IMG/VR virus record: IMGVR_UViG_3300002092_000025
Source of the DNA: a virus
Direction: 5' to 3' (one strand)
Length of the DNA stretch: 64,000 nt
Numbering within the stretch: position 1 is the stretch's first letter; every line of letters starts with the position of its first letter. The notes under the pieces were generated by a model. The model saw only the letters and a program-made list of their open reading frames with translations, was not told where the DNA came from and ran no database searches. The translations under genes were made by a program, and so were the position numbers. Shown here in pieces: positions 21,082-24,482 of the stretch.

Positions 21082-22834
21082 AAGAAGTAAACCCGTCCTC
21101 TTTAATAACTTTTAATACATTGTTCACACGACCGATTAATTCATCTTTGTGTGAGATGAGATAGATATTTTTACCACGCTCACGTCCCATCTTCTTGAGG
21201 ATGGCTAGACTGTTTTCAACACCAGCAGCATCCATGCCACTGTCAATCAATTCGTCGATAAACAGCAGATTAATAGGCTGATAGAGGTTTTCCCACATAT
21301 CACGGAACGCCCAACTCATAGAAAGTATCAGACGATTACGTTCACCTCTTGAAAGATTATCGAAATCTAAATCTTGTCCTAATTGTGTTATTTCTACAGT
21401 AAGATCGTTTTGGAAAGCAACTTGATGTGGAAGTCCGATAGCTTCGAGATAGTGGCTTAATCTTGTGTTTAGATATGCTAAGTTCTGATCAATGATCTTC
21501 TTACGGATAAAGCTATCTTTGTTAGTTAACAATTTTAATAGGAACTCTTGGTGTTCTTTTAATTTAGTTAACGAGTCAATTTGTGAAAGATCAATTTCCT
21601 GTAATGCTGTACGAGCAAGCTCTTCAACCTGTTCTTGATATGGGTCAATTTCGTCATTCTTAGAAAGATACTGGTTATGTAGATTGTCTAGATTGTTCTT
21701 ATGTTCATAAGCATCTTCTATCTTATCGTAGAATACAGAAGGGCGCGGACCGATATCACCGATTGCATCTATTTTAGTAATAGTAAAAACAAGTTCCTCT
21801 GCGATTTTAAGTTCGTTCGCATACGCACTCTCAAGATCGCTATTAATCTTAGCGATCATCTCTTCTTGTTTAGAATCGTGTAATTCTTGACCACAAGCAT
21901 GGCAAGTATGATCGAGTGTGCGTTTTTTTTCTTTTTCTAATCTATCCACAGCCTTTTGGGCTTGTCCCAGAAGTGTTTCACAGGTAGCTTTTTCTTTGTT
22001 AAAAACACGGAGTAAATCGGAATTTGTGGTCCAAGTTTTGAGATTAGCATGATCCTCAAGCTCACTTTCAACATCGAGGGAGTGTAGGTGTTTGATCGCT
22101 GTTTCGATTCCTTTAAGGTCTTCTTCTTTTTTTGAAGTCCATGCTTTTTGTTTAAGGATAAGACTGTCGATAGTTTGTCGTATACGCTCATTGCTGGTTT
22201 TTGTTGCGTCAATAACAGCATTTTCTTGTGTAATAGCATCTTTGGTACCCTTTACTTCCTCTTTGAGAACTTCTGCTTTTTCACTCAGTAGAGTGATACC
22301 TAGTAGCTGTTCGATCACTTCTCTTTGTTCAGCTGCTTTCAAACTTAAGAAAGGTTCGGTGTAGGTATTCAGTGCCACTATATGCTTAAACATAGTGTGA
22401 CTCATGCCTAAAAGTTCAGCGATAGACTCTTGTGTCTTACGACTGTCACCTTGGCTCTCGTCTAAGTCAGCAGCTTCTTGTTCGCGCTCGTTTACATAAA
22501 ATTTAAGAACGTTGGGCTTACGTCCACGTTCAATACGATAGCTTGTACCATTCTTTTCAAAGTTAACAGTGATAAGCATATTCTTGTTATTGATCTTATT
22601 GATTAGATTTTCACGACGAATGTTAGTCAGTGCTTGACCGTAGAGTCCATAGCTAAGTGCATTAATAATCGTAGTCTTACCTGTACCGTTTCGTGAGCCA
22701 CTGTCGTCTCCACCTTGGTCTAGATTTTCCCCTAGCACTAGAGTTAATTGATCTTGTTCAAAATCAACAGCTTGGGTAACATTTCCCACGCTCATAAAAT
22801 TCATGACTGTTAAGTTTTTAATTCGAATTGTCAT
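21053..22834 (-). CDS. gp46: Recombination endonuclease ATPase subunit (Rad50/SbcC-like)
   Basis: Walker A NGTGKTT, coiled coil with zinc hook CHAC, signature LSRGE, Walker B LLFIDE. Confidence 0.95.
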   Translation of the reverse strand: MTIRIKNLTVMNFMSVGNVTQAVDFEQDQLTLVLGENLDQGGDDSGSRNGTGKTTIINALSYGLYGQALTNIRRENLINKINNKNMLITVNFEKNGTSYRIERGRKPNVLKFYVNEREQEAADLDESQGDSRKTQESIAELLGMSHTMFKHIVALNTYTEPFLSLKAAEQREVIEQLLGITLLSEKAEVLKEEVKGTKDAITQENAVIDATKTSNERIRQTIDSLILKQKAWTSKKEEDLKGIETAIKHLHSLDVESELEDHANLKTWTTNSDLLRVFNKEKATCETLLGQAQKAVDRLEKEKKRTLDHTCHACGQELHDSKQEEMIAKINSDLESAYANELKIAEELVFTITKIDAIGDIGPRPSVFYDKIEDAYEHKNNLDNLHNQYLSKNDEIDPYQEQVEELARTALQEIDLSQIDSLTKLKEHQEFLLKLLTNKDSFIRKKIIDQNLAYLNTRLSHYLEAIGLPHQVAFQNDLTVEITQLGQDLDFDNLSRGERNRLILSMSWAFRDMWENLYQPINLLFIDELIDSGMDAAGVENSLAILKKMGRERGKNIYLISHKDELIGRVNNVLKVIKEDGFTSYANSTEVFE

Positions 22835-23457
22835 ATTGCCTCATTAAATTATCTTTCCAAGGTAACATTCTTAAATTATTAACTTGCGATGCTTCTTGAG
22901 GAGTTAAACCACGTTCATAACATTCTTTAATAGGAATTATATGATCTAATTGCCATCCACCTTCAACTCCGCAAAGAGTTCTAGGATACTCGTTAGGGTT
23001 AATTATATTTTTATTTTTTTCATAAATTTTTTGACTTAATCCGTGAACTTGTCTTGCATATTTTGTATATTCTTTAACATTAGGATTACGCTTCGGTCGT
23101 GGCATACCTTCATAAGACGGATTCATTGTTAGCATCTGACATCGATGTGAACAAAATCTTTTTTTAGATGATACCATAGTTTCCCAAGAATTTTTACAAT
23201 TATCAGCAATACATGTTACAATCTTTTTCTTATATCTATGAGGTCTAGGTTTAGACATTACTGCTGACTGGGAAGGAACAATATTTAATTTTACACGTAA
23301 ATTGCGAATTGTACCTAGTCTTGCGCTTAACATTACACTTAATTCTCTAGCACTATACGATACATCTTTAATCATTTCAATTTCTTCTTTAGTCCATTCT
23401 CTAAATTTTACTCTGGTCATGGCAATTCTCCTAGGGTATTTACCTCATGACTGTTAA
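22814..23457 (-). mobile_element. HNH homing-endonuclease cassette inserted in the 5' end of gp46
   Basis: Identical 13-bp direct repeat tcatgactgttaa at 22801-22813 and 23445-23457. A relic gp46 start MIKIKNLTVMR* lies at 23475-23440. Confidence 0.75.
22818..23420 (-). CDS. HNH endonuclease
   Basis: C-terminal WQLDHIIPI...NNLRMLPWKDN; CxxxxC...CSHRC zinc-finger-like segment; N-terminal helix-turn-helix-like segment. It has its own TAGGAG Shine-Dalgarno and GTAAATA motif. Confidence 0.85.
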   Translation of the reverse strand: MTRVKFREWTKEEIEMIKDVSYSARELSVMLSARLGTIRNLRVKLNIVPSQSAVMSKPRPHRYKKKIVTCIADNCKNSWETMVSSKKRFCSHRCQMLTMNPSYEGMPRPKRNPNVKEYTKYARQVHGLSQKIYEKNKNIINPNEYPRTLCGVEGGWQLDHIIPIKECYERGLTPQEASQVNNLRMLPWKDNLMRQYDNSN

Positions 23458-23471
23458 ATTCTTTATCTTAA

Positions 23472-24482
23472 TCATAGGCTATTGTAAATCCCTAAAAGTA
23501 CATTTGGATCAAAGTTTTCACTTTCAATATTGATTAATTGATTAGTGACGATCTGATCAACTGTTTCAAACTGTGTTATCTCTATAGTGCTAGTTCCTTC
23601 GAGATCTTTACGTTCAACAAGCATACTACATTCTCTTGCACCGTATTGTTCGATAGCGAGTTCTTTAATATACTTTGCTTCTGAGTGTGAAAGATCAATA
23701 TTCATGTTAACACGAATATGCATCTTAGGTTTAATCCTTGCTTCCATATTGTCGAGCAGTTGATCTAGCTTAAAGATGCGATAAAGTGGAGCATTTGGCC
23801 AATTTATGTACTGCGGTTCACTGCCCCATTTGAGAATCATCATACCTCTATCGTCGTCGAATGTGTCTGCAAAGTTATGAGGAAACGCATTTCCAATGTA
23901 ATGAATGTTCCCTCTAGCTTGACGTTTGTGGAAGTGTCCTGTGAATACGTATTCGTTGTTTCCGAGATCATCTGCTTGTATTTCACCATGGTCTGGCATC
24001 TGTACCATAGCGTTCATCATGAACAGTGGAAGCTCAAAATGCCCAAACATATAACGGCTTTTCATCTTTTTGAGTTTCTTCCATTCGTCGCCAACAAGCC
24101 ATGGAACAAATGCAACTTCATCCATAACGATTGGTTCAGTTAGCATGGTTATACCTGGAATATGTTTACCATATGCAACTGAACTTATATCTCTACGATC
24201 TTTGTAATAGAGGTCATGGTTGCCAGGAAAGAATACAACCTGCTGGAAAGCGGCACCGATTTTTTCTAATAGTTCGATACCGGTATTCAGTGTAGTAATA
24301 TTAATACTACTACGATTATGATTCCAGTCACCACAGAAGATAGCAGTTTCACATCCATTCTCCTTGGCAGTACTTATGAACCAATCAACAAATTCTATGC
24401 AGTCATCGTTGTGTGCTTTTGAATTTGACTTTAGTCCAAGATGAATATCAGTGAATACTGCTGCTTTCTTAAAAAATCCCAT
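23472..24482 (-). CDS. gp47: Recombination endonuclease nuclease subunit (Mre11/SbcD-like)
   Basis: Metallophosphoesterase motifs DIHLG, GDWNH, GNHD and GHFH; upstream of gp46. Confidence 0.95.
   Translation of the reverse strand: MGFFKKAAVFTDIHLGLKSNSKAHNDDCIEFVDWFISTAKENGCETAIFCGDWNHNRSSINITTLNTGIELLEKIGAAFQQVVFFPGNHDLYYKDRRDISSVAYGKHIPGITMLTEPIVMDEVAFVPWLVGDEWKKLKKMKSRYMFGHFELPLFMMNAMVQMPDHGEIQADDLGNNEYVFTGHFHKRQARGNIHYIGNAFPHNFADTFDDDRGMMILKWGSEPQYINWPNAPLYRIFKLDQLLDNMEARIKPKMHIRVNMNIDLSHSEAKYIKELAIEQYGARECSMLVERKDLEGTSTIEITQFETVDQIVTNQLINIESENFDPNVLLGIYNSL

Follow-up and report, generated by a model that had tools for sequence, protein, structure and literature searches.

A putative homing-endonuclease cassette that brings a substitute start for gp46 in freshwater T4-like phages

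How can a nuclease gene settle near the beginning of an essential phage gene and leave that gene whole? The question is raised by a 64,000-nucleotide stretch of viral DNA, IMG/VR record IMGVR_UViG_3300002092_000025 (the window), which comes from an uncultured freshwater T4-like phage. Here gp47, a gene coding a nuclease-like protein of 200 amino acids, and gp46 are all encoded on the minus strand, and the nuclease gene stands between a short stub of the native gp46 start and a functional gp46 copy with a different start. The insert is very probably a free-standing homing-endonuclease cassette that a large group of freshwater T4-like phages carries at a single site, 31 nucleotides (nt) inside gp46.

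A first interpretation of this DNA, made without database searches (the sequence-only reading), had described the locus as an ATGA overlap, a relic of the gp46 start, an HNH gene, a restarted gp46 and a 13-bp repeat, and every one of these parts is found at its coordinates (Table 1). The gp47 protein ends in ...GIYNSL and its stop codon TGA (23474-23472) overlaps an ATG (23475-23473), forming the ATGA. The relic opened by this ATG is closed by a TAA (23442-23440) that sits within the motif GGTAAATA. The functional gp46 starts with MTIRIKNLTVMNFMS (MTIRIKNLTVMNF) and shares 17 nt, read in a different frame, with the end of the 200-residue open reading frame (ORF), the gp46 ATG being located 13 nt ahead of the nuclease stop codon. 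The two copies of the repeat TTAACAGTCATGA are 644 nt apart and the sequences diverge upstream of them, AAGATAAAGAAT versus ACAATTCGAATTAAAAAC, the latter being one codon longer.

The original state of the locus is provided by phages that lack the nuclease gene. A scan of viral contigs with gp46 yielded 80 loci; 79 of them extend to the 5' end of the gene, and in every one of these gp47 abuts or overlaps gp46 with no nuclease gene. The three nearest HNH-free relatives, at 86% nucleotide identity, are L001, L152 (from an 88-kb contig) and L154, the last two being metagenome contigs. L001, the nearest, has 93% protein and 86% nucleotide identity to the window; its gp46 and the protein encoded upstream of it are each 93% identical to their window counterparts. 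Alignment to the three relatives defines the empty site, gp47 being joined to gp46 through ATGA with the junction ATGATTAAAATTAAGAATTTAACAGTCATGAATTTTATGAGC; L001 reads ...CCTATGATTAAAATTAAGAATTTAACAGTCATGAATTTTATGAGC and its gp46 begins MIKIKNLTVMNF at the ATGA. L001 aligns to the window in two blocks, 1-1272 to 24720-23445 and 1250-3672 to 22823-20401, so that 23 nt of L001 match both the stub and the new start. Judged from this alignment, the likeness of stub and new gp46 start is due to homology and not to chance.

That the stub is the original gp46 start, as the sequence-only reading had it, is borne out by its match to the empty allele of L001, L152 and L154 at 29 of 31 nt. The match includes the codons for Val-Met at gp46 positions 9-10, which are peculiar to the lineage formed by these three phages and the window, the remaining relatives having Val-Lys or Val-Arg. 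None of 82 HNH-free loci carries both N-terminal copies. Directly beside the insert, on either edge, the window flanks have the same 88-90% identity to the empty alleles as farther out. Since the flanks are native up to both edges, the foreign DNA corresponds to 23444-22814 and the 13-mer on either side of it is native.

Sequencing runs with contigs matching the locus are all from freshwater or lake metagenomes. A contig of run X5 joins 22800 to 23445 and skips 644 nt, with 13 ambiguous letters that fit either side, and a 491-nt contig of run X4 covers the gp47-stub-HNH junction without any difference. The stretch surrounding the insertion point varies only at third codon positions in 60 distinct HNH-free alleles. 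No second HNH-carrying genome of the lineage was found in a 16-mer scan of viral contigs, which returned L001 and 23 chance matches, nor in the scan of one metagenome, which returned L152, L154 and eight chance matches. A DNA search of a phage collection found no close cultured relative and matched only gp46 of jumbo phages at 6-11% coverage.

The nuclease has 204 close homologues, and an exhaustive search for its family gave 1496 cluster representatives at E<=0.001. DNA was available for 33 contexts: the window, L081-L101 (L095 and L100 being cut at a contig edge) and L156-L165. They were reached via the protein, a conserved 26-nt pattern or exact-protein look-up, and include members only 45-55% identical. 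All 33 are situated between gp47 and gp46; 27 have a whole or truncated HNH gene and six are decayed or cut by the contig end. A stub and a GGTAAATA-type junction are seen in most of them, as is an HNH gene end overlapping the new gp46 start wherever the two junctions can both be read. The stub of all 15 distinct elements has 11-13 codons, begins at -1 to +6 of the gp47 stop and is open until the junction stop; the junction is ...ACNGTNANNA followed by GGTAAATA or a close variant, then by the ribosome site and the nuclease gene. In the same elements the nuclease ends in a conserved ...WKDNLMRQY, whose DNA (AATGAGGCAATATG...) contains the new gp46 start. Single deviations are found in L163, where the stub is fused in frame with the nuclease, and in L164, where the stub is gone.

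The 26-nt HNH 3' end is kept in all 21 viral-contig loci, decayed remnants included. Only the last 14-88 nuclease codons are left in the decay products L097-L101 (L100 is cut by the contig edge), with an intact gp46 behind them. As read from these sequences, the HNH 3' end of the remnants now serves as ribosome site and start of gp46; this end must stay during decay because gp46 takes both signals from there. In three HNH-free loci, L050, L053 and L055, gp46 starts with MAF..., 9 nt after the gp47 stop. Elsewhere such 'MA' starts were seen only where the HNH gene or a remnant of it is present, the G of GCA being contributed by the last nuclease codons; the three loci may be scars of a lost element.

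The distribution of the element is patchy. On a gp46 tree of 84 distinct proteins (FastTree, first 20 columns excluded) its presence, remnants included, takes at least 12 changes, the mean for shuffled labels being 15.7. Presence and absence at the identical site are observed among close relatives, both for the window versus L001, L152 and L154 and for the HNH carrier L083, which nests among the HNH-free L051, L059 and L076. L083 and L076 have 94% nucleotide identity across gp46 but share only 38 of the first 50 nt, while the L083 gp46 start matches distant HNH carriers at 21 of 21 nt. One of these carriers is L085, with 22 of the next 27 nt in common and about 66% identity in the rest of gp46; for L159 and L101 the values are 21/21, 24/27 and about 67%. 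The window and L156, which carries the nuclease closest to that of the window (73% amino acid identity) and whose gp46 also starts with MTIRIKN, have 19/21, 17/27 and about 67%. By these alignments, the first seven gp46 codons are shown to travel with the nuclease, in keeping with the proposal that the replacement 5' end comes with the element. The locus displays features of free-standing homing genes (patchy distribution, co-transferred flank tracts and decayed copies) together with one of end-replacing elements, a nuclease gene and a substitute gene piece that form one unit and leave the native piece as a relic.

We read the 200-residue protein, from its sequence and predicted structure, as a helix-turn-helix (HTH) domain followed by a zinc ribbon and a divergent HNH domain. 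Its C-terminal half corresponds to phrog_5104 of PHROGs, a family of unknown function (E 1.5e-22). An alignment of 28 diverse members has invariant C70, C75, C90 and C94 as well as D159, H160, N182 and N191, the latter four agreeing with the pattern of the HNH superfamily, in which a catalytic His within a D/H-H motif is followed by two conserved Asn or His. In Pfam the window protein has no family at E<=0.01 and only zinc-finger noise at E<=10; among the 28 members, zf-CGNR is hit in 10, HTH families in several and the HNH family PF01844 weakly in 2 (E 0.059). A few source databases name some family members 'McrA'. The AlphaFold model of the protein has a predicted local distance difference test (pLDDT) score of 84. 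Its residues 113-200 align moderately to the Gme HNH nickase 4h9d (Z 5.7, root-mean-square deviation 5.2 A over 73 residues) and to the GVE2 HNH protein 5h0o (Z 3.8), while residues 3-47 align to small HTH domains, including the GcrA DNA-binding domain (Z 6.0). A Foldseek search of the whole model against the PDB gave nothing at E<=0.001, only weak HTH matches, and among PDB sequences the family profile found no HNH chain, its only matches being weak ones to zinc ribbons (E about 0.07).

Distant homologues of the nuclease (245 phage records; 25-28% identity over 90-96% of its length) are found in cultured T4-like phages, where their genes, annotated as hypothetical, separate the tail sheath gene from the tail tube gene. 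These phages could serve as cultured models for the nuclease family. In Acinetobacter phage vB_AbaM_AB-Navy-v2 (L166) the homologue is directly preceded by a perfect hairpin that contains a TATAAATA box. The ORF annotated at this site in Escherichia phage Pu-Krd-SF5 has only 267 nt, and this copy may be decayed.

The mobile unit in this reading extends from GGTAAATA to codon 7 of the substitute gp46 start (23444-22814). It supplies, in this order, the stop that closes the decapitated native start, a possible late-type promoter, a ribosome site and the nuclease gene, whose last codons hold the likely ribosome site, the ATG and the first seven codons of gp46. The native start persists as an 11-codon ORF coupled to the gp47 stop by the ATGA. 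Because the cassette carries a substitute start, the essential gp46 stays whole without splicing. During co-infection the nuclease presumably nicks or cuts HNH-free alleles near the conserved site, and recombinational repair from the HNH-carrying genome would then copy the cassette in.

That the 13-bp repeat is exact stems from both copies being native to the lineage; both have the Val-Met codons. The repeat most likely results from later recombination with HNH-free relatives, by which native sequence would have been restored as far as the foreign DNA begins; alternatively, one copy could have converted the other. Lineage-specific exact runs between stub and new copy are also found in L089 (14 nt), L082 (17 nt) and L162 (20 nt), and recombination or conversion is the simplest account of these too. 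In most relatives the end of the stub follows the nuclease subclade, and the stub has only 5-8 nt in common with the new copy; as far as these sequences tell, the repeat is not a transposon-style target duplication there. The 20 nt shared in L162 (235-300, 898-935) encode a lineage-specific GLVV. In L165 (2438-2500, 3075-3115) the two copies encode nearly the same peptide (MLKIHALTIKK, MTLKIHSLTIKN) while most synonymous sites differ. The copies of L162 and L165 are useful for dating and for testing conversion versus independent origin.

An unlikely alternative is that entry itself duplicates about 13 bp of the target, for instance through two nicks 13 nt apart whose 3' tails both prime on the donor, later recombination or conversion not being needed. 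It would account for the Val-Met codons in both 13-mers and for the flanks that are native to both edges, the exact runs of L089, L082 and L162 fit it, and the best structural matches of the nuclease are HNH nickases. It does not agree with stub ends that follow the nuclease subclade, such as CTGTTATTA followed by GG in L157-L161 and L101, with shared runs of 5-8 nt, nor with L083, which has an ordinary co-converted tract, and to our knowledge there is no HNH homing enzyme with a 13-nt stagger. A long-stagger cut is less likely than recombination or conversion as the origin of the repeat.

The constant position of the gene beside the gp46/gp47 nuclease complex and the stub ORF that is open in 15 of 15 distinct elements could also be expected from a domesticated, vertically inherited accessory of that complex, a regulator or partner, the duplication being an old rearrangement. 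This is very unlikely in view of the patchy distribution on the 84 tips, the close relatives cleanly without the gene and the several independent decay products. In addition, a short flank tract moves between phages with gp46 only 66% identical, and the distant homologues occupy an unrelated site between tail genes of cultured T4-like phages.

That gp46 is made from the upstream ATG after removal of 644 nt, the insert being a self-splicing intron of group I or II or resembling an intein, can practically be discarded, in agreement with the earlier proposal of an insertion without splicing. Joining the 13-bp repeats would give back the exact native frame MIKIKNLTVMNF, but a search of 20000-25500 gave no Rfam family at E<=1, and with 603 of the 631 foreign bases taken up by the ORF there is no space for a ribozyme core. 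The stub ends at a stop codon brought in by the element, and the nuclease ORF, which is out of frame with gp46, has a ribosome site and a stop of its own. Shuffled sequences fold as well as the junction regions do (z -0.43 and +0.21), and decayed remnants with intact gp46 retain the new start and no RNA core.

The sequence-only reading had also suggested that the element recodes the gp46 5' end and may so protect it from its own nuclease. Recoding is indeed found in codons 1-7 but in nothing beyond them, the sequence from -13 to +16 around the insertion point being that of the empty allele. The occupied allele of the window can be told from the empty one only by these codons, by the additional codon and by the HNH end that stands in place of the gp47 end. 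Any immunity must therefore lie farther upstream, or the site of this lineage is not cut. In L083, 12 of the first 50 gp46 nt differ from the nearest empty allele.

Several points weigh against a homing cassette. The invariant D-H...N...N pattern, the fold match at Z 5.7, the 'McrA' names and the weak Pfam hits in 2 of 28 members form the whole basis of the HNH assignment. A simple model of a recoded and hence immune start does not fit the window copy, to judge by its letters, and no co-conversion tract is visible in the window. Ordinary double-strand-break repair does not explain the first duplication. Furthermore, the HNH-free and HNH-carrying loci are not a random sample.

Table 1. Coordinates of the gp47-gp46 locus in the window and of related features in other loci
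Feature	Position	Strand	Remarks
gp47 (Mre11/SbcD-like nuclease subunit), 336 residues	23472..24482	-	Pfam Metallophos, E 1.4e-05
Relic ORF ATGATTAAGATAAAGAATTTAACAGTCATGAGGTAA (MIKIKNLTVMR and stop), 11 codons	23440..23475	-	native as far as 23445; stop supplied by element
Direct repeat TTAACAGTCATGA, 13 bp, upstream copy	23445..23457	-	native target sequence
Foreign insert, 631 nt: junction motif, ribosome site, HNH gene, seven replacement gp46 codons	22814..23444	-	absent from L001, L152, L154
GGTAAATA, conserved left end of element	23437..23444	-	source of stub TAA; kept at junction in most family members
Shine-Dalgarno sequence AGGAG of HNH gene	23428..23432	-	direct reading; conserved in family
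Putative free-standing endonuclease gene, 200 residues: HTH, four-Cys zinc ribbon, HNH-like domain	22818..23420	-
GAGG within HNH coding sequence	22839..22842	-	likely gp46 ribosome site; 4 nt ahead of new gp46 ATG
Element-borne gp46 codons 1-7 (MTIRIKN)	22814..22834	-	one codon longer than native start
gp46 (Rad50/SbcC-like ATPase subunit), functional copy, 593 residues	21053..22834	-	Pfam SMC_N, E 6.9e-11; AAA_23, E 7e-08
Direct repeat TTAACAGTCATGA, 13 bp, downstream copy	22801..22813	-	native gp46 resumes
Junction-motif hairpin	L156:2469-2506
Junction-motif hairpin	L083:2961-3000
Junction-motif hairpin	L082:2955-2994
Junction-motif hairpin	L085:2940-2979
Junction-motif hairpin	L089:2941-2979
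Distant nuclease homologue	L166:3010-3597		Acinetobacter phage vB_AbaM_AB-Navy-v2
Distant nuclease homologue	L167:3001-3594		Escherichia phage Pu-Krd-SF5

The arrangement of translation signals agrees with the coupling that had been proposed: the ATGA between gp47 and the stub is kept and the HNH gene end overlaps the new gp46 start. Of the 17 occurrences of the motif ATAAATA in the window, 12 directly precede gene starts, for example those at 25415 (+), 25388 (-), 31958 (+), 51128 (+) and 55076 (+), and the late-type promoter core of this phage seems to be NATAAATA. GTAAATA, one mismatch away from ATAAATA, has this position in only 2 of 12 occurrences, and the full T4 box TATAAATA occurs only twice in the window. 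It is plausible that GTAAATA/GGTAAATA may act as a late-type promoter of the HNH gene. The junction motif of L085-L088 is CATAAATA, and L091-L094 have an added TATAAATA. The window also codes a late sigma factor similar to gp55 (phrog_12791, E 2e-82; 276 residues, 24535-25365, minus strand). T4 gp55 has about 185 residues, and the gp55-like protein of the window seems much longer.

A hairpin over the nuclease ribosome site is clear in five relatives (Table 1), in which TAAATAC... pairs around the nuclease Shine-Dalgarno sequence with -6 to -13.5 kcal/mol, the sequences differing by lineage. These hairpins are reminiscent of T4, where the ribosome site is masked in read-through transcripts and accessible in late ones. 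No convincing hairpin was found at the nuclease ribosome site of the window (-3.7 kcal/mol locally; z -0.43 for an 86-nt stretch) or of L157-L161.

This kind of element is known elsewhere, and the gp46 family would be its 5'-end, phage, HNH version; no description of a gp46/gp47 homing element was found in the open-access literature on gp46/gp47 with homing endonucleases. The closest analogues appear to be the MobA/gene 60 cassette of T4, the WHO elements of yeast and the mobile ORFs (mORFs) of fungal mitochondria. The MobA cassette combines an HNH homing endonuclease, an element-encoded homR, which takes the place of the deleted target stretch, and a 50-nt bypass (bioRxiv 10.1101/2022.08.31.505936, citing Bonocora et al.). 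Like the gp46 element, it has a free-standing nuclease of HNH type inside an essential phage gene and brings its own divergent copy of the target-bearing stretch of that gene; its nuclease is often a pseudogene or missing where the accompanying sequence is retained, and closely related genomes have empty sites. It differs in that the topoisomerase is split into two polypeptides, 55-75 nt of host gene are deleted and ribosomal bypassing is needed. The gp46 gene, in contrast, is not split, nothing is deleted and the native piece remains as an upstream stub, the replacement being a start codon and six codons that overlap the nuclease stop. The nuclease layout is also another one, with an HTH, a CGNR-like zinc ribbon and a short HNH.

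WHO elements replace the 3' half of yeast FBA1 (bioRxiv 10.64898/2026.08.13.744650). Fungal mitochondrial mORFs with duplicated gene ends, in Allomyces atp6 and in Glomus atp6, atp9, cox2 and nad3, bring in a foreign C-terminus and leave the native relic (PMC3630166). Both share with the gp46 element the absence of an intron or intein, the nuclease gene accompanied by a substitute end of an essential host gene, and a displaced native end that stays as a relic resembling close relatives while the inserted copy is foreign. They replace a 3' end or half, reside in eukaryotic nuclear or organelle genomes and use LAGLIDADG or GIY-YIG enzymes, whereas the gp46 element affects the 5' end of a phage gene, has an HNH-like enzyme and a very small replaced piece of 21 nt, and rebuilds translation initiation.

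The seg and mob homing genes of T4 are intergenic or split a gene, as mobE in Aeh1 nrdA, mobA, and seg in gene 43 (Edgell, Gibb and Belfort 2010, PMC2988022). They resemble the gp46 element in being small nuclease genes between conserved genes, overlapping or coupled to their neighbours, with a late or middle promoter in front; in several relatives a hairpin likewise extends over the ribosome site. The word stem 'duplicat' is absent from this review of T4 mobile elements, which accordingly describes no duplicated, replaced gene start.

A more tentative picture, which we hold to be possible but somewhat doubtful, is that the cassette is the 5'-end phage counterpart of WHO with a cleavage-resistant start, that the stub is a translated leader coupling the nuclease to gp47, and that variants of the gp46 N-terminus such as Lys10-to-Met in the window lineage record an arms race with the nuclease. 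In addition to introns and inteins, a spare start carried along would give a selfish nuclease a third means of residing inside an essential phage gene. The element explains the variable gp46 N-termini and gp47/gp46 junctions among these phages, and occurrence of empty, occupied, decaying and scar alleles at one site makes rates of gain and loss measurable from metagenomes. For annotation it is a warning that the short ORF after gp47 and the 'intergenic' nuclease gene belong together. The target sequence is conserved across many uncultured phages, and the nuclease, if its activity is true, would offer a new specificity with a defined natural target.

The other side of gp46 is also occupied. A SegE-type GIY-YIG nuclease gene (Pfam PF19835, E 4.6e-33) is located directly downstream of it in the window (20397-20843, minus strand), and also in L001 and L159, so that gp46 of the window has nuclease genes on both sides. 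Elsewhere the downstream position codes a NUMOD3 protein (L157, L165) or, on the opposite strand, a PD-(D/E)XK protein (L164). From these sequences the site looks like a second hotspot for selfish nucleases. An ORF of 87 codons (20818-21081, minus strand) overlaps the gp46 end and the start of the GIY-YIG gene and has no Pfam or PHROG match; L001 has this ORF too (aligned through 20401), and in L159 it occurs as a gene for 91 residues.

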